From Hemiscyllium ocellatum (Eukaryota), in assembly GCF_020745735.1 (NCBI RefSeq), contig NC_083409.1, positions 10,405,534 through 10,469,533 of the forward strand: DNA of 64,000 bases. Direction: 5' to 3'. The translations under genes were made by a program, and so were the position numbers. The notes below the pieces were generated by a model, which saw nothing but the letters and a program-made list of their open reading frames with translations, had not been told where the DNA came from and searched no databases. This document shows positions 6,515 to 55,080 of this stretch, piece by piece (the stretch's first letter is position 1; each line of letters begins with the position of its first letter).

Positions 6515-7280
6515 TTGATATTGATTTGATTTTTATTTTAGTTTATTGTCACATGTACTCGAGTGCAAAAGTATTGGAGTACAGTGAAAAGTATGTAACG
6601 TCACCTCACAAGGTGCCATCTTAGGTACAAGGACCTCAGTACAGAATCGTTAAGAACAAGGTAGAAAGAAAGAATAAAGTTCAAAGTTACATGTTGCAGA
6701 TCTTTTTAGTTTTAAGTAGAAAATGAAGAAATAAAGCTGAAAGTTCAAGTATTAGAGCCTTTCTTAAGAACTCAGCAACCATGGGATCATACTTTAAGTA
6801 ATCACCTCGAGACCAGAAGTCCACGCTGAGGCCTTCCCGGGTGGAGAGACAACCATATACAGAAAGGACCACTATGTGGGATGAGAGACACCCACTCTGG
6901 GCCACTCAGAGATCGCTACACTAGTCCGAGTGACCATCACGCTGGGCTGACAGTCTAGCATGCTGGGCCGAGAGGCCTCCACATCAAACTGAGAGGCCAT
7001 CATGTTGGACCAAGAGTCTGCCTCATCGGGCTGGAAGGTCTCCCTGCCAAGCCAAGACACTGCCACACCAAGCCAAGAAGCCACATCATGAGGTCTGAAC
7101 TAGGTCAGAGGCCTGGCGACTGAGGTTGGGAGTCCGTGCCCGCGAGAAGAAATAAGGGAGAAGGACAAAAGAAAAACACAAAAGAAAAGGATAAGAGAAG
7201 TGGAATAGAAAGAAGAAAAGGATACAGACAGAGCAGATGAACTCGGTCTGAAGTGTCCTACTCTGCTGCCATCTTGGATT
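6515..7280 (-). mobile_element. Probable non-autonomous LINE-tailed element (family not identified)
   Basis: Minus strand starts CCAAGATGGCAG (YY1-like) and ends ATGTGACAATAAAC followed by a short A-rich repeat tail; no coding potential. Confidence 0.4.
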
Positions 7281-7284
7281 ACTG

Positions 7285-9550
7285 GGTCTCAGGCTACAGT
7301 CTGATATTGGTCAGTTGGTAAATTGGGCAGAGCAATGGCAGATGTAATTTAATCCTGATCTCTCTGAGGTGATCCAACTTGGGAGATCTAATAAGGGAAG
7401 GATATACACAATGAAAGGCATGTGCCTTGAGTGTCCTTATGCATGAATCACAGAGGGTTGGTCTACAGGTACAACAAGCAATTAGGATGGCAAATGGAAT
7501 TTTGTCCTTCATTGCTAAAGGGATTGAGTTTAAAAAGCGGGAAGGTTATGTTGCAGCTGTACAGGGTGTTGGTGAGACCACACCTTGGGGACTGCGTGCA
7601 GTAATGGTGTCCTCACTTGGAAAAGGCAATACTGGCACTAGAGGGGTGCAGGGAAAGTTCACTAGGCTGATACTGGGGTGGAGGGGGTTGGCTTATGAAG
7701 GGAGACTGCGTAGACTGGGATATATTCATTGGAACTTAGGAGAATGAGGGGAACATGATAGAAATAAATAAAATTATAAAGAGAATAGACAAGACAGAAG
7801 TAGGGAGGATGTTCCCACTGGCAAGTGAAACTAAAACAAGAGGGTTCAGCCTCAAAATTAGGGGGAGCAGATTTAGGACTGAATTGAGAAGGAACTTCTT
7901 CACCCAGAGGGTCATAAATCTATGAAATTCCTTGCTCAATGAAGAAAATGATGCTACTTCAGTAAATGTTTTAAAGCTAAGACAGACCATCTCTGGAATG
8001 GTAGGCCTAATATATGATGAACGGCTGAGGATCGTGGGATTGTATTCATTCGACTTTCGAAGGGGAGATTTAATAGAAACTTACAAGATAATGCATGGCT
8101 TAGAACTGGTGGATGCTGGGAAATTGTTTCCATTAGGTGGGGGTACTAGGACCCGTGGGCACAGCCTTAGAGTTAGAGGGGGTCAGTTTAAAACAGAACT
8201 GAGGAGACATTTCTTCAGCTAGAGAGTGATGGGCCTTTGGAATTCATTGCCACAGAACGCGGTGGCGGCTGAAATATTAAATGTCTTCAAGGCAGAGATT
8301 GATAAATTCTTAATCTTGCAATGAATTAAGGGCTACAGGGAGAGTGTGGGTAACTGTCGTTAAATGCCCATCACCCATGATTGAATGGCGGAGTGGACTC
8401 GATGGACCAAATGGCCTTACTTCCACTCCTTTGTCTTATGGTCTTATGTAGAGCTGAGTCCATGAAAAGATCAGCCATGATCTTATTGAATGGCAGAGCA
8501 GGGTTGAAGGGACAGATGGCCTACTCCTGCTCCTAGTTCTTATGTTCTTATGTTCCTTGGGAGTACTGAGGAACAAAGGGACCTTTGTGTACAAGTCCAT
8601 CAATCCCGGAAGGTATCAGCACAGCTAGACAGGGTGGTGAAGAAGGCATATGGGATGCTTGCCATCATTAGAAAAAATAATACAGGCATGGACAATTTTC
8701 TAAACGGTGAGAAAATTCATAAAGTCAAAGTACAAAGTGATCAAGGAATGCTAGTTCCCGGATTCTCTAAAGGTTAACTTGCAGGTTGAATCCATGTTTA
8801 AGAAAGCAAATGTAGTGTTGTCATTTATCTCAAGAGTTGAAAAAGAGCCATTCCTGAAGAAGGGTTTATGCCCGAAATGTCGAATTTCCTGTTCCTTGGA
8901 TGCTGCCTGACCTGCTGCGCTTTTCCAGCAACACATTTTCAACTGCTTGCCATCATTAGCCAGGGTGTAGAATATAGGAAGTAGAAATTCTTGTCGTTAC
9001 CTGACAGAGCACTGGTTAGGTCATGTCTGGAATATTGTGCACAGTTCTGGTCGTGACACTGTTGGAAGAACGTGATTGAACTGGAGAGGATGCAGAGGAG
9101 ATTAACCAGAATATTCCCTGGGATGGAAAGTATTCGTTATGAGGATAGACTGTGTTTCTCTCAGATAGACTGTACATGTTTTCTCTGGGGGAAATCTGAT
9201 TGAGGTATACAAAAATATGAAAGGCATAGACAAAGTCAATTGTGAGAATCTTTTCCCCATGTCAGACATGTCTATGACCAGAGCGAATAAGCTTACCATG
9301 TGAAAAAATGGTTTAGAGGGGTTTTGAGGACTTTTTTCCCCAGAGGGTGGTAGAAATATGGAGTGTGCAGCTTGAGAAGGTAGTGGAGGCAGCTCCTCTC
9401 ACAACATTTAAGAAACATCCAGACGAGCACATAAAATGCCAGGGCTTGGAAGGCAATGGACCAAGTGCAGGTCAATGGAGTTTGGTAATAACTGGTTGGC
9501 ATCGACATGTCGACAAACAGAAGGGCCTGTTTGTTTGCTGTATGACTCTA
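7285..9550 (+). mobile_element. Stack of 5'-truncated CR1 3' fragments
   Basis: Repeated RT C-terminal motifs (GDLIETYKIM, RTRGHSLRV, FFSQRV) and 3'-UTR tails (CTTATGT repeats). Confidence 0.8.
8845..8945 (+). mobile_element. Penelope-derived short element with a decayed minimal hammerhead ribozyme
   Basis: ATTC-CTGAAGA-AGGGTTTATGCCC-GAAA-TGTC-GAAT at about 8850-8885; C-to-T change in stem III. Confidence 0.65.
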
Positions 9551-42875: not shown

Positions 42876-44419
42876 TGTTAAAGTACAGATTTGAGATGGC
42901 CCAAGGAATCCCTTGTGGCCTCAGACCTGTAAGCCTCTCTTGGTTTGTCCCGGCTATTGCACTCTGAGTCTGGAATAGCCTGGAATAAAAACATCTTACG
43001 GACAGTTTAGTTTAATTTTAGTCTTCCCCTTTATTTACCAATAACATCTCTGTTACAACATAACACTGGGACTTATTAGCCTGACTAACTAAGATTCTAA
43101 AATCTTAGGAGAGTAGCGACCAGCTCTGCCTTGAAGAGCTCTAGCAGGTAACTCTCTCCTGTCACAAACAGGTTTCCTTTATACAAAATTTTACAAAAAC
43201 ATTGCATTTGATTAGATTTAAGCACTTGGCGAGACAAGTCCTTACTATAATAAGGAGGTACCAGTCGAAACTAAGTGGGAGAAGTCGTAAGGTAATCTTG
43301 CATGTCAAGTATCGTTTTTTCCAAAATGGCTTCTTAGCAAGGAGGGCAAACTTTGACCATTTAAAAAATGGCTTCCTCATAGATTGTGTCAGAATCTCTT
43401 CTATATTGGGTGAGAATAATTTTTAAACTATGAGCAGACTCTTGCTTTTTATCTTAAGCAAACAATCATTCTGAACCTGAGGCTGAATTGTTACTGCAAA
43501 GTTGTATTTCAAATGATTCATTTGTCTTGAATTAGACATTTAATTTCTTTTCAGGGTTGTGGTTCAAATTCAAAGAGGACATAGATCTGACTCGTTAGAA
43601 TTGATAGTGGGGCAGTCATGGTCTGTAAGAACAGCAAGTAAGTTAAAAGCTTCGTCAGCATTACCTTTTATAGAATTTGCATTTCATAATCAGCGATTGT
43701 TACTTAAAATAATCATAAAGTCCCAAAATGCAATTAAGTTCAAAACAAGGGTTATGGAGATAACAACGGAACAGGATAATGATTGTACATAATCAGCCAT
43801 GGCCATAATAAATGATGGTGCTAGCTTGAAGGGCCGAATGGCCTACTCCTGCACCTGTTTTCTATATTGAATCCACAACAAGTAAGCGTGCATTCCAACC
43901 AAATCACAGTTAATTTTCTATTGGTTTTGGCAATCTCAGCGTTAAAATGTTGTTCTCTCACTCTAGTGTCTTTTTGAACACCCAGGTTAGGGACTGTAAC
44001 AGAATAATGTTTTTCCCTTTCTGTCTGCCGAGCCTGCATGGGTAATAAGAATCCAGTATAATTAATACGACCTGACCATTAATTACAAGGCTTTTGACAT
44101 GCTTGCAGGATGATACCAAGTCAGAGATCAGAATTAAACACTGTCATTAATTTCACAAGTAAACACCCATGAATGTTATCACTCTGTGTCCTGTTTACAC
44201 AGATTCATTGCTGTTAAGGCAATTGTTCTTAATTGCCTTGGAGCATCCTGTTACCACTTGGTGAGAACAGATGTTTTTATCTTCTGCACATCCTGGGTTC
44301 ACCCTTTTGTGGCCTGGTGCCTCCCTGGCTGTCCTGTTTATTTTCTACTGTGCAACAAATATGTTCTATAATTCAACATTACATTTAGTCAAAATGTTTT
44401 AAGGCTATAAACTTTCTCA
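42876..44419 (-). mobile_element. ERV 3' LTR (with a small CR1-tail insert at about 43790-43870)
   Basis: Minus strand runs TGAGAAAG...CTTTAACA (imperfect terminal inverted repeats); preceded by polypurine tract AAAGGAGGGAA (44430-44420); TATAAA 43183-43178 and AATAAA 43035-43030; its U5 end matches 48204-48320. Confidence 0.8.
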
Positions 44420-44489
44420 TTCCCTCCTTTAGTCATTTCATGACAACTACATAAGTTATACAAGTATAATTAGTTCATTCAGTCTATTT

Positions 44490-46785
44490 GTATTCTCAAT
44501 AATTTGAGTGCTTCCTCTTGCGAGTCATTGTCCGGAGGATCAGAGCGGAAAGACACTGGATTTCAGCAGAGACATTCAGACGTGGAGCTACAGGGGTAGG
44601 CAAGGGTCGATTAACAAGATTCCTCTATGGCTTAGGCGAAAAGCAATGTACAGTCCATTCCATGCATAAGTGGATGACACTGAATATTCCTAGGATGAGA
44701 CCGGGGCCTATCAGTACGTTCCACACAGCGACCAAAGCCAGCAAGTAATACTCCATCCATATGGATCGGATGATGGTGCGGCAGGTGTCTTCCCTACATC
44801 TTGACCAGTTTTGTTGATAACATCTATGTTGTCCAAAATGTCTTTAGAGAAATCATTGATGTAGATGCAACATTGTTGGCCAATAACAGAACAAGCACCT
44901 CCTTCTTCAGCAAGGAGGAAACGTAGCATGAGCCAATTCTGAAGTGTTACCATCCAGGTCTCCTGTACCTCTTTGTTCACCAGTTTCAAAGCGTGGGTAG
45001 TTGAGTTGGCAAGTGTATCGATGTCATGCACACGGTCAGTTACCTGATCTCGGGCCTTCTCAACATCCCAGCCAGGAGTAAGGCCTCCCAGCAACTTGCA
45101 TCACCAGGTTTCTTGATGGAAGAAGTTGTCTAAGTCCTGCTTGAATTTCCTCTACGTTTTGTTCCATTATGCTTCACATGTTGGTAGGCGTTCATTCATC
45201 ACCTACCTCAGATACTTCATGGTGGAGGGTAAAAAGTGGTAAATTTTGTACTAGGGCACAACATTGGTACCAGTCATTGGGTAAATATGGGTGGCCTTTG
45301 TTTTCACATCGCCAATGAAGGCTAAAAGGAGTTCCAAAGGCACACTTCTGTGCGTGAATGATGAGTCCACTCAAGGCGAGAGCTGATTCTTGTAAATAGT
45401 GGGTGCTCTCAAACGTTTGGATGTCCAAGTGTATTAATGAATGAAGAGCAGGAGTATGAACAGTGTCTTTGATAACATTTTTACACAGTGCTGGCTTCAC
45501 TTTCCCCATGTCTTGGGTACCGGATGTTCTTTCAACGCACCATTCTAACAGCAAAACAACATCAAAGTTGAATCCTTGACGTTTGTTAGTGCATTTCACA
45601 TAGAGATGCACCTTCTACCGAATGGGTTTTGCCATCATAAATGAGGGGTTGCATAAGTGGGTGAATCCTATTTCTACACTGTACATCAGAATGATGGAAG
45701 AGTGAGCAAATGACACATGGATCGGGGGTTTAGCTTGAGTAAAGAAACTATTGGTAACAGAAGGGAGATTGGGAGTGCATAGTATCTTTCCAGCTCGTCA
45801 TCTTAATTACAGTAAGTATTGAATACAGGAACTGTATACAGAGGAACCTCGATTATCCAAATGAGACGGGCCGGCACTATTTCATTCAGATAATTGATTG
45901 ATTATTCGGTTAATTGATTTCCTCTGGGTCTGTGAAGTCTGATCCCCGATCAGGACGCACGCAACATTTTGACAGGTTCTGCCTCTGTCCTGTACAGGGC
46001 AATGTTGGAGCGATAATCTAGGGATGGGGTGTTTGGGGTTCACCCCTGTTTAGAACTCTGGGGAGAGAGAGAGGGCAGGAGGTCAGTCATTTGGAGATGG
46101 TGTCTGGACTGGTCAGGACTGTCCTCGGCAGCATTTCAGTGAGCCGAGCATGCTTTTAATCATTGTACCTGTAAACAGAAGACGTGATCAGGATTGAAAT
46201 CCTGATGTAATGTTTCTATCGGGACCTTAAGATCACCTTCGGATAATCCGATATTCGGATAATTGAGGAACCTGTGTAAAGGTATTTCTGTCAGTGGTGG
46301 TAGGTCGAATAGGTGAAGGTGCCATCGAGAAGGCATAGGTTGTCTGTCACGGGAGTAGATGCCTGAGGGTTTTGTGATTTCGGTACTATGTGCTCAATAC
46401 TGCAATCCGTACGGTTTGTTTTGAGAGGGGAACAGACAGACATTTCAAAGTAACAGTTTTCGGTTGACAGAATTGTGCCATCTCATGATGTCTGGCATGG
46501 AAGTGTTGCGAGGATGATGACAAGGTCGAGAGTGATGTTTGGATACAAAATGTGAGCAGTTTAACTGAGTTTCAGCTGGGCAGCTGCATTCATAACTTCC
46601 AATGGTATTAGTACAGGTTTCATTTGTACAGTTACATTGGAATTGTAGGCAGTCTGAGATATCACAGATTAGTCGGTTACATCTGGACGTATGTACTTGT
46701 GTTGGGTTTTCATCGGATACCTGTATCAGTACTAACACAGGACTGTGAGGGAGATACACGCTTGCAATGTCCTTTGTCGATCCAA
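44490..46785 (-). pseudogene. env: ERV envelope (class I, gamma-type TM) with an N-terminal EGF-like domain; disrupted by stops, frameshifts and a MITE
   Basis: TM immunosuppressive domain LQNWLMLRFLLAEEGG plus CX6CC (CSVIGQQCC) in ORF 44711-45094; SU motif HWRCENKGHPYLPNDWYQCCAL in ORF 45192-45611; hydrophobic anchor region near 44660-44745; EGF-like segment 46556-46666. Confidence 0.88.
45839..46276. mobile_element. Tc1/pogo (Tigger-like) MITE inserted in env
   Basis: TIRs CAGAGGAACCTCGATTATCC / GGATAATTGAGGAACCTGTG flanked by TA at 45837-45838 and 46277-46278. Confidence 0.85.
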
Positions 46786-47755
46786 GTTGAACATTCTTCT
46801 ACCTTTACTGCAGTTTCAGTTGTCAGAAAATCTTGATAAGGACCTTTCCAGCGAGGGCCCAATCTTTGATGATTAAAGTCCTTCAATCGTATGTAGTCAC
46901 CAGGATTGATGTTTTTAAACTTTGGAGTTAGCTCCTCTTCCTTCCCTGGTACACAATAGGCTGCTTTGACTTGTTCTTAAAAATGTATTGCTTCAGGAAA
47001 TGGCCTGAAGAAGGGCTTATGCCCGAAACGTTGATTGTTCTGTTCCTTTGATGCTGCCTGACCTGCTGCGCTTTTCCAGCAACACATTTTTAAGCTCTGA
47101 TCTCCAGCCCTCACTTTCTCCTGCTTTGACCTGTTGATGATACGACTGCAATGCTTTGGTCAGCTTAATCTGGTACGTGTGCATTTCTTCTGCCGTGACA
47201 TGCACATCAACCGGGTGTTGGAGAGTTAATGGTGCAGACCAGGGAGTCCTCATGGGCTTTCCATATATCAGTTCAGTCGCCGAGAATCCCGTCTTTTTCT
47301 ATGTCATGGTTTTCTCATATAAAAGGGCATTTGGGAATACTTGCAGCCAATTACGACCAGTTTCTTCCACCAACTTGCTGAGCTGACCTTTTAAATTACA
47401 ATTGGCTTTTTCTACAATTCCCACTGCTGGGAGATGTTTGGCACAATGGAATTTTCACTCATATTCAAACTCTTACATAGTGCCTTGTTTAGCTCCGCAC
47501 AGAAATGGGAGCCATTATCAGAAGAAACCTTTACTGGGATTCCAAATCTGGGCATGATTTCCTTTAACAGAATTTTACAAGTAGTTGTTGCTGTGCAGTC
47601 AGTACAGGGATAAACTCCAATCCGTTTGTTAAATACATTGATTATCACTCAGCAATACTTATAACAATGGCATCTCGGTGACACCCTAAACACTCACTGG
47701 ATAGTGTCAAAAGGTGCACTAGGCAAGGGAAGTGAATGGACTAATTCCCCTTTTA
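46710..47755 (-). pseudogene. pol: ERV integrase (core and C-terminal domain), decayed
   Basis: PSAPFDTIQ, LLKEIMPRFGIPVKVSSDNGSHF, GIVEKAN, PGDYIRLK..GPRWKGPY..TTETAVKV..TWIDKGHCKRV; stop at 46712-46710. No RT or protease seen, so an internal deletion is inferred. Confidence 0.9.
46976..47120 (+). mobile_element. Hammerhead-bearing short element inserted in the ERV integrase
   Basis: CTGAAGA-AGGGCTTATGCCC-GAAAC-GTT at 47005-47032; flanked by a 15-bp direct repeat CTGCTTTGAC(T/C)TGTT (46961-46975 and 47121-47135). Confidence 0.75.
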
Positions 47756-47759
47756 ATAC

Positions 47760-47900
47760 AATTTTGTCTCCATGATGATTGAATTTTCATTTTTCCCGAG
47801 CTACCTTTTACCGTGCTGATATGGCTTCTTTCTGCTTACTTCCCTTTCTTTTTTCCCAAATTTGTTGCTCAATTTTAATACGCGCCCATATTTATCCAAC
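47760..47900 (-). pseudogene. gag: Possible remnant of the gag matrix region
   Basis: Basic degenerate frame IKIEQQIWEKRKGSKQKEAISAR*KVAREK between the leader and the integrase; called mostly from position. Confidence 0.3.
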
Positions 47901-48095
47901 TTAGTTTAAATCTTCACATAACTATTGATCTACAGGGGCTCCAATCCACAAAACACAGGGGCCTCTAATCCCACAAGATTCTGTTTTTAGTACCTAATTT
48001 AAACAATCTCATTTAGGGTTTCGTCCGGGTACCGTGAGAATGAAATGGGGGAAGCAGCACACAAAGAAGCAGACCGAGAGCAATCGAGGTATAAT

Positions 48096-48103
48096 CTTAC
48101 CTT
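48096..48103 (-). promoter_or_regulatory. ERV major splice donor
   Basis: AAG|GTAAG about 80 nt downstream of the primer-binding site. Confidence 0.6.
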
Positions 48104-48182
48104 GTGGACCCATTGGTCTCGAGTCCGACCCTTCGATGAAGCTCCTGTTTTCGAGTTTCATTCAAACTTATCCCTTGTTGGA

Positions 48183-48200
48183 ACCCTGCTCGCAGCGCCA
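48183..48200 (-). promoter_or_regulatory. Primer-binding site, tRNA-Ser-like
   Basis: TGGCGCTGCGAGCAGGGT; the + strand GAACCCTGCTCGCAGCGCCA resembles the 3' end of vertebrate tRNA-Ser(UGA/CGA) as I recall it; 3 nt from the LTR end. Confidence 0.8.
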
Positions 48201-48203
48201 AAT

Positions 48204-48320
48204 TGATAAACTACAGGTTTGAGATGGCCCAGGGAATCCCTTGTGAACTCAACCTGTAAGCCTCTCTTGGCTCATCCCGGAGATAGTATTTTTGGTAGTC
48301 TGGAATTAAAATATTCCTGA
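48204..48320 (-). mobile_element. Truncated ERV 5' LTR (U5 end only)
   Basis: About 10 differences in the first 78 nt versus 42876 onward (counted by eye); homology is lost after about 48320. Confidence 0.8.
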
Positions 48321-50639: not shown

Positions 50640-53600
50640 TTTCAGCGGCAGCAGCAACTCGAAGGGTGAGAGCTTGTACCAGGGGCCTGCTGGGAGCAGT
50701 GAGTCACTGATTTGAGCTTTTAAATTTAAAGTCAGAGAGCAGAGGTTTCTGGGAAAAGAGGGACTTCTTATTTTTATTTCCATCCAGCTATATAATTCAA
50801 TGGTTTCTCAAGCCGAGACCCTCCCTTTGTAGGGCCTCCCACCCAACCACCTCCTCTAACATTAATAACTAGGGAGATATCAAGTAGGCATCACTTCGTT
50901 TTTTTACTTTGTGATAAGGGGACTAGCAGTGATGGCAGTGCAGGGAGAGCAATGTTCCTCGTGCATGATGTTTGAGGTGAGGGACGCCATTAGTGTCCCA
51001 TCCAAGTACATCTGCACGTAGTGCACCCAACTCTCGCTCCGCCAAGACAGTGTTCGGGAACTGGAGCGGGAGATGGATGAACCTTGGATCATTCAGGAGG
51101 GAGCTGCTGTAATAGATAAGAGTTAGAGGGAAGTAGTTACTCCTAGGCACGAAGAAAGCTGGGTGACTGTTCAAAGGGGGAAAAACAGTCAGTGGAGCGA
51201 TCCGCTGTGGTTGTTCACCTGAAAAACATGTATACTGTTTTGGATACTGTTGAGGGGGACGACTTACCAGGGATATGCAGTAAGGCCCAGTTCTCTGGCT
51301 CAGAGCCTGTCCCTGGTGCATATGAGGGAAAGGAGGAGAGCGTTAGTCATTGGGGATTCGATAGTTAGAGGCTCAGATAGAAGATTTGTAGGGAACGAAC
51401 GAGACTTGCGGTTGGTGTGTTGCCTCCCAGGTGCCAGGGTCCGTGAGGTCTCGGATCGTATCTTTGGGGTCCTGAAGGGAGAAGGTGACCAGCCTCAAGT
51501 CGTTGTCCGTGTAGGTACCAACGACATAGGTAGAAAGAGGGATAGGGATATAAGGTAGGATTTCAGGGAGCTAGGGTGGAAGCTGAGAGCGAGAACAAAC
51601 AAAGTTGTTATCTCTGGGTTTGTTGCCCTGGCCACGTGATAGCGAGACAAGGAATAGGGAGAGATATCAGCTGTACACGTGTCTGCAAGGATGGTGCAGG
51701 AGGGAGGGTTTCAGGTACTTGGATAATTGGGACTCATTCTGGGGAAGGTGGGACTTGTACAAACAGGACGGTCTTCACTTGAACCAGAGGGGTACTAATA
51801 TCCTGGGTGGGAAATTTTGCTGGTGCTATTCGGGTGGGTTGAAACTAGCTCAGCAGGGGATGGGAACCGGAGGTGTAGTTGCAGTGCACAGGAAGATGAG
51901 AGTAGGAAGGACAGGGACAGGATTTCGGGGGTCGCAAGAATGTGCTGGCAGACAGCGAAGTGATTTGAAGTGTGTCTATTTCAACGCCAGAAGTATCCGA
52001 AATAAGGTAGGTGAGCTTGCAGCATGGATAGGTACCTGGAACTTTGATTTTGTGGCCATTTTGGAGACATGGATAGAACAGGGTGAGGAATGGATGTTGC
52101 AGGTTCCTGGGTTTAGATCTTTCACTAAGAACAGGCAAGGCGGTAAAAGAGGGGGAAACGTGGCCTTGTTAGTCAAGTATAATATAACGGTGGCTGAGAG
52201 AAATTTTGATGAGTACTCGTCTACTGAGGTCGTGTGGGCTGAGGTTAGAAACAGGAGAGGAGAGGTCACACTGCTTGGAGATTTTTATAGGCCTCCGCAG
52301 AGTTCCATGGAAGTGGAAGAGAGGACTAGCAAAATTATTCTGGGTAGGAGTGAAAGGAACAGGGTGGTCATTGTGGGGAACTTTAACTTCCCCAACGTTG
52401 ACTGGAAATGCTATAATTCTAGTACGTCGGATGGATCAGTTTTTGTCTGATGTGTACAGGAGGCTTTCCTGACACAGTATGTTGAAGGGCCGACAAGAGG
52501 GGAGGCCAAATTGGATCTGGTGCTTGGTAATGAAACAGGTCAGGTGTTTGATTTAGTGGTAGGTGTGCACTTTGGAGAGAGTGACCATAATTCAGTTATG
52601 TTTAGTTTAGCGATGGAAAGGGATAGGTACATGCCACAGGTCAAGAATTAACGACGGGGCAAGGGCAATTATATTGCGATTAGGCAGGAATTAGGATGCA
52701 TAGAATGGGGTAGCAAAATGCAGGGGATGCAGACAATGGAAACGTGGAGCTGGTTTAAGGAACAGATATTGCATGTCCTTGATAGGTATGTCCCTGTCAG
52801 GCAGGGAGGAAGGGATAAAGTAAGGTAAGCGTGGTTTACGACAGAAATTGCATCTCTTGTTACGAAGAAGAAGGAGGCTTATGTGTTGATGAGGCAAGAT
52901 GGTTCAGATGAGGCGATGGAGAGTTACAGATCAGCAAGGAATGATTCAACGAGAGAGTTAAGAAGAGCAAAGAGAGGACACGAGCAGTCTTTAGCAAATT
53001 GAATAAAGGAGAACCCTAAAGCTTTCTATAGGTATGTGAGAAATCAAAGGATGATTAGAGTGGGAATAGGGCCAGTCAAAGACAGAAGGGGGAAGTTGTG
53101 TGGATCCTGTGGAGATCGGAGAGGTGCTAAATGAACATCTCTCATCAATTTTCACTCAGGAAAAGGAGAATATTGGAGAGGAGAAGAACGAGGTATGAGA
53201 TACAGTAGCGCCAGAACATACGAGCGACCCCGTTCACAAACAAATTGGTTTACGAACAGTATTGTACATAAAGTTTTGCTTCTACATACGCACAAAATTC
53301 AAGGTAAGAATGATGGTATGAGCAATTCGTCTTTGGAGTATGCACAGTTCGTCTTTGGCGCGTGCGCAGTTCATCTTTGGAGCGTGCACTGTGAACATGG
53401 GAAAAATTGATTCGCGAACCGGGTGGCGGAACAGATTAAGTTCGTAAGTCGACGCGCTACTCTGTTAGACTTGAAAGGATCGAGGTTAGTTACGCACAGG
53501 TGTTATCAATTCTAGAAGAAGTGAAAATAGACAAGACCCCTAGGCCGGATGGGATTTATCCGAAGATTATCTTGGAAGCTAGGGAAGAGATAGCAGAGCT

Positions 53601-55080
53601 TTTAGCTTTGATATGTGAGTCATCATTGTCTCCAGGTTTGGTACCAGAGGACTGGAGGACTGCAAATGTTGTGCCCTTGTTCAAGAAGGGCAGTAGAGAT
53701 GACCCAGGTAATTATAGACCAGTGAGCCTTACTTCTGTTGTAGGAAAGGTTAAGGAAAGGATTATAAGAGATAAGGTTTATAATCATCTAGCAAGCAGCA
53801 CTTTGATTTCAGATCGTCAACGTGGTTTCGTCAAGGGCAGGTTGTGTCTCACAAACTACAGTGAGGTTTTTGAGAAGGTGACCAAGCATGGAGATGAAGA
53901 TAGGGCAGTTGACACTGTATACATCGACTTCAGTAAAGCCTTTGATAAAGTTCCACACGGTAGGTTGTTGGAGAAAATGCAGAGGATGGAATTTAGGGTG
54001 ATTTAGCAGTTTGGATAAGAAACTAGCTTTCTGAAAGAAGGCAGCTAGTGGTTGATGGAAAATATTCAGCCTGGAGTCCGGTTACTAGTGGTGTGCCACA
54101 AGGATCTGTTTTAGGACCACTGCTGTTTGTCAGTTTTATAAATGACTTAGACGCAGACTTAGGTGGATAGATTAGTAAATTTGCCGATGACAGTAAATTT
54201 GGCGGAGTAGTGGACAGTGTGGAAGAATGTTACAAATTGCACGGGATCTTGAATAAACTGCAAAATTGGGCTGAGAGGTGGCAACTGGAGTTCAATGCAG
54301 CTAAATGTGAGGCGATTCACTTTGGGAAGAATAACAGGAAGGCAAAGTACTGGGTCAATGGAAAGATTCTTGGTACTGTGGATCTGCATAGGCATTTTGG
54401 AGTCCATGTACATTGATCCTTGAAAGTTGCCATCCAGGTGGATAGTGCTGTTAAGAAGGGATACGATGTTTTCAGTTTCATTCGTAGATGGATTGAGTTT
54501 CAGAGACGCAATATCATGCTTCAAATATACAAAATGCTGGTGTGGCCACACTTGGAGACCAGAACTGTTGACAATATTCCATATTTTGCGAAGGATGTGG
54601 AAGCATTGGAAAAGGTGCAGAGGAGATTTACCAGGATGTTGCCTGGTCTGGAGCGAAGGTCTTATGTGGAAAGGTTGAGAGACTTGAACCTATTTTCATT
54701 GGCAAGAAGAAGGCTAAGAGGGGATTTCATCGAGACATACAAGATGATCAGAGGATGAGATAGGGTAAACAGTGAGAGTCTTTTTCCTAGGATGATGGCA
54801 TCAGCGTGTACGAGGGGGCATAACTACAAATTGAAGGGTCATAGATTTAAGACAGATGTCAGAGGCAGGTTCTTTACGCAGAGAGTGGTAAGGGCGTGGA
54901 ATGCCCTACCTGCTAATGTAGTCAACTCAACCACATGTGGGAGGTTTAAACAATTCTTAGATAAGCACATGGATGATTTTGGGATTGTGTAGGGGGACGA
55001 GCTGAGAATAGCTCACAGGTCGGCACAACGTCGAGGGCTGAAGGGCCTGTTCTGCGCTGTATCGTTCTATGTTCTATGAA
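50640..55080 (+). mobile_element. Full-length decayed CR1 LINE
   Basis: 5' UTR; ORF1 with SGNH esterase LVIGDSIVRG (51250-51850); endonuclease LKCVYFNARSIRNK (about 51960); RT (53500-54760); 3' UTR with a (TTCTATG)n tail. Confidence 0.92.
53203..53464. mobile_element. Tc1/pogo (Tigger-like) MITE nested in CR1
   Basis: TA then CAGTAGCGCC..ATACGA at the left end; TTCGTAAGTCGACGCGCTACT at the right end. Confidence 0.75.

Follow-up and report, generated by a model that had tools for sequence, protein, structure and literature searches.

Two EGF-like domains in tandem within the envelope frame of a class I-type endogenous retrovirus family of Hemiscyllium ocellatum

The envelope gene (env) of an old endogenous retrovirus (ERV) family, a copy of which lies in a 64,000-nucleotide stretch of Hemiscyllium ocellatum DNA (the window), carries a pair of EGF domains that is fused within the env frame and stays in one phase throughout. 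It appears probable that this tandem pair was captured from a host and made up an accessory attachment or spacer part of Env rather than its entry domain. Retroviral captures described so far consist of a separate gene that was added or of an env that was replaced, and a host adhesion-type module inside a selected Env would imply that the front third of SU accepts whole cellular domains in nature. Engineered ligand-display envelopes likewise carry added domains. Both EGF domains are complete in the long copies of the family, and most of this part is missing from the short copies, which include the window copy.

The provirus in the window and its hybrid EGF module

The window copy is a dead, internally deleted provirus of an old class I ERV family and lies on the minus strand. 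Its features are listed here in the order of the element.

48204..48311, minus strand: 3' end of the 5' LTR, 87% identical to 42953-42876 over 78 bases
48183..48200, minus strand: primer binding site complementary to tRNA-Ser, recurring in other copies
48095..48104, minus strand: splice-donor-like site for the env message, about 100 bases past the primer binding site
47731..47880, minus strand: remnant of the gag start, with a junction near 47731
46710..47730, minus strand: integrase, broken (MLVIN_C E 4e-13; rve in a sister copy)
near 47004-47120: short repeat within the integrase, repeat family D5/D6
46712..46785, minus strand: signal-peptide region of env, which shares its DNA with the end of pol, without a start codon and with a frame break near 46738
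46622..46711, minus strand: front of the Cys-rich N-terminal part, aligned to codons 25-55 of copy L062 and ending at a deletion junction
46547..46621, minus strand: back half of the second (calcium-binding-type) EGF, equal to L062 codons 230-255 (EGF_CA, hEGF and EGF_3 matches)
45140..46546, minus strand: remaining SU with CxxC motif, basic cleavage-like site and several breaks
45842..46266, minus strand: insert of 430 bases whose inverted ends are imperfect (MITE-like by eye), confined to the C9/C10 duplicate group
44500..45139, minus strand: gamma-type TM, broken, with an immunosuppressive-domain-like stretch, CX6CC and membrane span
44430-44420, minus strand: polypurine tract
42876..44430, minus strand: polypurine tract and 3' LTR, the LTR being about 1.5 kb (the LTR pair of L076 is similar in length)

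The remnant of the 5' LTR terminates in CA, in agreement with the LTR ends of other copies, and the remainder of this LTR is lost or unrecognised in the window copy. A pattern based on the primer site was found at five genomic places, all five of which are tRNA-Ser genes, and the splice-donor-like site, to which the preliminary description of this DNA had pointed at 48101, recurs in long and short copies alike. The window copy lacks capsid, protease, RT and RNase H; of eight natural gag/pol probes, the one for integrase alone matches the window. TM is recognised by TLV_coat (E 8e-4), by an Ebola-like HR1-HR2 and by PDB profile matches. The window copy is a member of a group of near-duplicates with common flanks on contigs C9 and C10, which was counted as one insertion because the flanks are shared. 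Upstream of the provirus, a LINE-like element with endonuclease and RT-like frames (by eye) occupies 50923-54760 of the window on the plus strand.

To judge from its domains, the family is a class I ERV (gamma/epsilon-like) with a gamma-type Env. RT, which is present in at least 12 family loci and missing from the window copy, exceeds the RVT_1 cut-off and has the MLV-type p80 as its best PDB match (E 1e-10), the TM profile matches are GP2, syncytins and MLV p15, and the gene order LTR, primer site, gag, pol, env, polypurine tract and LTR was found, in which the capsid is assigned by position alone, with no Pfam match. The MLV-type RT, MLVIN_C, CxxC and CX6CC are shared with the gamma-type retroviruses (MLV, syncytin, filovirus-like TM), from which the family differs by the EGF pair in SU, the LTR of about 1.5 kb and the tRNA-Ser primer site. 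All copies examined are decayed; LTR pairs diverge by 0.12-0.21 (8 loci), and the end branches in the tree measure about 0.085. Absolute dating from the LTR pairs was dropped, since, with one or the other of the two substitution rates quoted in PMC4422223, a divergence of 0.12-0.21 could stand for anything from tens to hundreds of millions of years.

The preliminary description had proposed a single captured calcium-binding EGF domain at the tip of Env, on the strength of a peptide encoded at 46666-46556 of the minus strand. This peptide is present within a stop-free frame of 117 codons, it has the signature C-x-N-T-x-G-S-Y-x-C-x-C and four sequons (46633, 46624, 46561 and 46507) as described, it is flanked by the C-terminus of the integrase and by TM in the Pfam matches, and it exceeds the EGF_CA cut-off of 27 with 28.9 and 30.3 bits. 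The env frame of the family contains an EGF module, located after the signal peptide and before SU, and the segment, recurring across family loci, is no one-off insertion. Its interpretation as one domain at the tip had to be given up: a deletion junction lies at about 46622, and the full form has two EGFs that follow a Thr-rich stretch and occupy about codons 170-255 of Env. The alignments indicate that the "EGF" of the window is a hybrid of upstream cysteines and the last four cysteines of the second EGF, and that it passes the EGF_CA cut-off partly because of a cysteine private to the window copy. This cysteine, the one of "DISDC", was found in one of 26 short copies, namely in the window copy itself, and none of nine other short copies tested is above the cut-off (best 26.3 bits). 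The acidic calcium-binding residues are absent from the hybrid module of the window, and so are Cys1 and Cys2 of the same domain, which were lost in the deletion. Two fold predictions, with a mean pLDDT of 35 and 40, were uninformative.

The two frameshifts that had been assumed for the window env fall well short of its actual decay, which amounts to about nine frame breaks, three stops, the loss of the start codon and the 430-base insert. The start that had been placed at the end of pol, together with the signal-like stretch behind it, is borne out by the family, since Met is found in 12 of the 13 long copies that align there and likewise in 12 of the 13 short ones, and the signal-peptide region is open in the natural copies L062 and L064. 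The length of about 600 codons given for env comes near the short form, which has about 570 codons from start to membrane span by the summed distances, the long form having about 750.

Long and short forms of env

A DNA search in which 40 of 143 candidates were scored gave 40 matches out of 40, and a protein search with 150 of 405 candidates scored gave 151 matches. In the long copies, e.g. L062, L061, L063 and L071, the signal peptide is followed by a Cys-rich part, a Thr-rich stretch, a first EGF, a calcium-binding-type EGF, the SU core and TM, in this order, and both EGF modules are complete with six cysteines each. The Thr-rich stretch of L062 contains 19 Thr in 68 residues, and 12 sequons occur in the first 320 codons of this copy. 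The first EGF is present in at least 26 family loci (26 of the 34 genome matches to it, E<=2.5e-5) and exceeds the EGF_3 cut-off of 28.5 in three of four long frames (29.6, 31.6 and 34.3 bits), the isolated pair scoring 43.6 bits on the same profile; hEGF stays under its cut-off in all copies tested, and the second EGF of decayed long copies stays below the EGF_CA cut-off of 27, at 16-23.5 bits. Each of the 12 EGF cysteines is the commonest residue of its column (18-22 of about 25 long copies). The consensus of calcium-binding EGFs has acidic residues before Cys1 as well as an Asn and an aromatic residue between Cys3 and Cys4, and the D-D-E-C, N and Y of this motif are the commonest residues at their columns in the second EGF of the long copies. 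Further downstream, the cysteines of the SU CxxC are kept in 35/40 and 40/40 copies and those of the TM CX6CC in 27/32, 22/35 and 33/35. The basic cluster before TM is conserved, but for the last position of a canonical furin site (R-x-K/R-R) the tally does not give R or K as commonest; the nearest family by RT, hereafter the sister family, has RGRR/RGKR in this place.

From the signal to the membrane span, env is covered by overlapping stop-free stretches of single natural copies. There is no env codon column with a stop in half of the copies, the top share being 10/21, and the highest stop shares are located at CpG-prone codons. The commonest distance from motif to motif is a multiple of three for 20 of the 21 intervals of the long form and 16 of the 17 of the short form, and the two intervals out of phase were traced to scattered private losses. 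One of the regions so affected is the Thr-rich interval: the phase is kept there in only 10 of 22 long copies, and the most frequent spacing lacks one base, in 5 copies at five different places.

These results bear on the alternative of an accessory ORF for the EGF stretch, placed between pol and a separately started env like the KIT-ligand of CrocERV29. The preliminary description had kept an accessory ORF in view because of a second hydrophobic stretch in another frame, and the EGF frame of the window copy does stop at 46445. The frame end at 46445, however, comes after a break near 46470, and natural copies read on from the EGFs into SU for 157-405 codons (157-178 in several of them). The open frames of L061, L062, L063 and L064 largely dispose of the alternative, with L064 open from Met through signal peptide and EGF stretch into SU, and L062 open from Met across both EGFs into SU without a stop. 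As the intervals from EGF to SU are also in phase in most copies, with no stop column in common, an accessory ORF retains next to no probability. The 405-codon frame of L061 (L061:4482-5696) results from a private deletion that joins the integrase frame to the first EGF, so that it runs from the integrase tail through the EGF pair into SU.

The longest Met-started open frame seen is that of L062, with 344 codons comprising signal, stalk and EGF pair and no anchor. Contigs under two other organism labels match its EGF region at 97-98% identity and single-copy depth, the same as its flank, which suggests that the L062 insertion is likely to predate the split of these organisms several times over; orthology rests here on identity and depth, the contigs having no bridge across the LTR-flank junction. 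Both the open frame and these matches would be compatible with a co-option of L062 by the host as a secreted protein, yet four codons of the Cys-rich part are missing from L062, as is a cysteine that is conserved in the first EGF, its divergence from the matching contigs (about 2-3%) is as large as that of the flank, and its end branch (0.083) is similar to those of other copies, which renders such a co-option very improbable.

The window copy belongs, as the alignments indicate, to a single deletion branch that retains only the back half of the second EGF. The short copies align to L062 through codon 55 and again from codon 230, leaving an in-frame gap of 175 codons relative to L062 and of up to 180 relative to less eroded copies. 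Among 50 distinct short junction stretches, 47 resume at one place within 3 bases and the remaining three about 30 bases later. The 11 bases behind each breakpoint agree at 5-10 positions (median 7, 18 long copies), which is what a template switch would lead one to expect. A tree was computed from 37 natural stretches with the deleted columns excluded and with no outgroup, the bootstrap being not fully settled and four rows less than half filled; in it, a 100/100 branch separates the 16 short copies from the long rows, which radiate like a star. The polarity of the deletion rests on domain completeness and the breakpoint repeat, the tree being unrooted. In the model proposed here, the template would have been switched a second time, between two 11-base stretches that repeat each other imperfectly; this would have removed most of the EGF part and joined the upstream cysteines to the last four of the second EGF, maybe creating one hybrid disulfide module.

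Gain of the EGF pair, its donor and comparable captures

The sister family was found in the same genome by the RT search, at about 49% identity, and is younger. Its env shows homology to that of the window family, beginning at about the second third of SU and extending to the end of the comparison in TM (E 1e-33 and 4e-38), and the five sister env frames scanned contain no EGF match; one more distant env of the same genome and four fish-type envs gave no match either, so that none of the ten scanned had one. Since the sister family shares the SU core and TM and has no EGF, the pair was likely gained rather than ancestral. The front thirds of the two envs give no significant alignment, and the sister frames begin with a Ser/Thr-rich stretch of their own; the Thr-rich stretch of the window family may therefore be viral, and the edges of the captured piece cannot be set.

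Several observations on these other envs can be recorded. The younger sister ERV (L245-L255, L263 and L264, e.g. L246:3033-5489 minus) has pol frames that stay open over long distances and open env frames of about 790 codons, and some of its copies have a second furin-like site just ahead of the part homologous to the SU core of the window family. One fish-type env from a public assembly, protein P0026, shows a weak Ig V-set match at its front (residues 49-84, E 0.002, under the cut-off), perhaps a second host-type domain on Env. Another env of the same genome, L258:3477-5687, starts with three CxxC-containing Cys/Trp-rich repeats that have no Pfam match.

For the host donor presumed in the preliminary description there are three leads, all weak, to an N-terminal EGF pair of the SUSD1/uromodulin type, the best host matches to the viral pair having 31-48% identity. 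SUSD1 clusters come first in the Atlas list, with weak scores of 0.75-0.79, uromodulin is the top PDB match when the pair is compared as a whole (E 0.04), and the best non-viral genome match to the first EGF is an exon of an EGF-cbEGF-sushi-Fn3 gene (48%, E 1.25). In uromodulin and SUSD1, too, a first EGF with a C-x2-C-H start is directly followed by a calcium-binding-type EGF; the loops of the viral EGFs are longer than those of their N-terminal pair. In the reciprocal search from the host gene, viral copies came 11th and 13th of 91, the tail of the first EGF fits another host exon better (presumably cubilin-like), and the second EGF fits other genes better. A profile of the first EGF scored 19.7 and 16.7 bits against host exons, with 17.3 bits for the best shuffled control. 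The degenerate DNA pattern C-x2-C-H-x-N/D-A-x-C occurs at 47 genomic places, and the 31 that were read comprise four family copies, one SUSD1-like exon and otherwise non-coding DNA. The capture, as far as these comparisons go, is old or was made from another host.

Other searches yielded no donor candidate. In a protein collection searched with the L062 frame none of 472 candidates passed, and a PDB search with a single copy gave no match. Among longer proteins, the five of 2001 retained with the EGF-pair profile were all generic invertebrate EGF proteins (37-40%), and the 18 matches in a representative library were 17 generic EGF proteins and one spurious coiled-coil repeat, so that both sets were rejected. 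A stabilin-type origin of the Cys-rich front (Pfam E 0.006, Atlas EGF leads 0.75-0.77) is no more than a lead, as shuffled controls were not beaten, the front scoring 7.2 bits against the stabilin-like exons of the genome and the controls 11.4. In passing, three host loci were seen: a SUSD1-like gene (G000:C2:118.35-118.42 Mb, L133-L139) in which the series of sushi exons is greatly enlarged, to 12 or more by motif, two of them confirmed by Pfam; a gene with open frames of 723 and 878 codons of uninterrupted EGF repeats (L111:502-2670 and 6600-9233, G000:C14); and a tandem array spanning 350 kb (G000:C54:62.87-63.22 Mb; L191, L192 and L204), in which dozens of exons of one EGF each are nearly identical, and which by its exons is a very large EGF-repeat gene.

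With regard to the capture itself, it is proposed that the ancestral virus took up the EGF pair from a spliced cellular message, by a switch of the RT onto a co-packaged message as its template. A template switch is suggested by the fact that the two EGFs abut without an intron, the corresponding exons of the best host candidate being 6.4 kb apart.

Captures by other non-mammalian ERVs have been described by Chong et al. 2014 (PMC4299795), in whose accessible text CrocERV29 has acquired KIT-ligand and CrocERV31 nectin3, in both cases a host extracellular protein at the pol-env position, as in the window family. CrocERV29 carries KIT-ligand as a separate ORF between pol and env, whereas the EGFs of the window family are fused inside env; in CrocERV31, nectin3 stands in place of env, which is otherwise complete in the window family, and the donor is plain (nectin3, about 76% identity), unlike that of the window family, which is too distant to name (PMC4299795). 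Class I ERVs with env are also known from cartilaginous fishes, as the CmiERVs of the elephant shark (Han 2015, PMC4422223) and in an env survey of 40 chondrichthyans (PMC12813294). The accessible parts of these two sources make no mention of an EGF domain, the supplement of the survey giving 3,891 intact fish env frames as coordinates (Data S1) and containing no shark env sequences, and the same holds for an EGF-bearing env in the accessible parts of PMC4977317, PMC10435555, PMC6001957, PMC4299795, PMC11905727, PMC12813294 and PMC10699275. In this literature, the scope of which ends at subscription papers, Repbase/Dfam and bioRxiv supplements, no natural retroviral env with an in-frame EGF domain was found. 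Judged against it, the EGF pair is what appears to be a family-wide host capture by a class I ERV, new in being fused inside env.

Selection on Env and the role of the EGF pair

The selection counts exclude CpG-prone columns, the long copy L206, which is divergent, and 8 rows that are duplicates. The private changes across env, 794 silent to 2346 replacement, point to neutral decay after insertion, with similar ratios for the EGFs, for the Thr-rich stretch and for SU and TM. The fixed differences between long and short copies, with 39 silent to 35 replacement, depart from this ratio (p 7e-7), and the comparison argues that Env worked while the long and short lineages diverged. The silent bias of these differences is strongest in the SU core, TM and the integrase; in the back half of the second EGF it amounts to 5:2, or to 2:0 without CpG columns (p 0.07). 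The branch under selection may be older than the deletion. L206 gave no usable signal of selection because its integrase and TM look neutral.

For the first EGF there is no direct sign of selection, the long copies forming a star, and its private changes (31:112) are as neutral as those of the Thr-rich stretch (60:179). This would agree with the EGF modules being mere passengers, that is, a host message in a tolerant variable part of env, mostly deleted later for lack of function, and so would the several independent deletions that touch the EGF region (L061, L080 and L213 in addition to the short clade). The 12 cysteines and the residues of the calcium motif, however, have been kept despite less than 50% identity to any cellular EGF found, and idle or unpaired cysteines of an Env would be expected to decay, for which reason the passenger explanation is considered improbable.

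In the preferred reading as an accessory module, the two EGFs would form a calcium-stiffened rod on a Thr-rich, glycosylated stalk, likely displayed on the virus surface as an attachment part, where it would bind a partner on the cell surface or in the matrix and aid attachment or shielding. Receptor binding and fusion would be left to the SU core and TM, which are common to the window family and the EGF-free sister family. A more far-reaching version is put forward tentatively, with both of its parts together given rather less than an even chance: the chimeric Env would have carried a SUSD1/uromodulin-type pair on a mucin-like SU stalk, bound host cells or mucus and later been reduced to a compact functional hybrid EGF, and, in view of the weak Ig-like match in another fish-type env, retroviruses of aquatic hosts may repeatedly have displayed domains borrowed from the host on Env, a strategy so far overlooked. 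Such a module offers a testable route by which new folds could arise at the variable front of Env, and EGF or Ig domains upstream of TM provide a marker for screening the thousands of catalogued fish env frames.

The receptor-binding domain of gamma-type envs is found in the front third of SU. The EGF pair occupies this very third, which is wholly different from that of the sister family, and the last four cysteines of the hybrid module are still present in 16-18 of about 20 short copies, so that the pair could itself be the receptor-binding or signalling part, acting like its cellular parent and setting the tropism. Against this stands that the lineage from which the first EGF has gone, together with the stalk and the acidic residues, outnumbers the long one, with at least 50 junction stretches against 26 long loci, and that the pair resembles structural EGF repeats (EGF_3, EGF_CA, uromodulin), not growth-factor EGFs; a receptor-binding role is thus regarded as unlikely, albeit as the foremost competitor of the accessory module, with which the success of the deletion clade is in agreement. 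It has to be noted that the loss of protease and RT is common to at least 10 short copies, RT being retained in two, and that the spread of these copies therefore need not have made use of their own Env. Ten short loci (L070, L073-L075, L214, L219-L222 and L225) constitute a non-autonomous sub-lineage, in which one breakpoint deletes protease and RT and env is kept.
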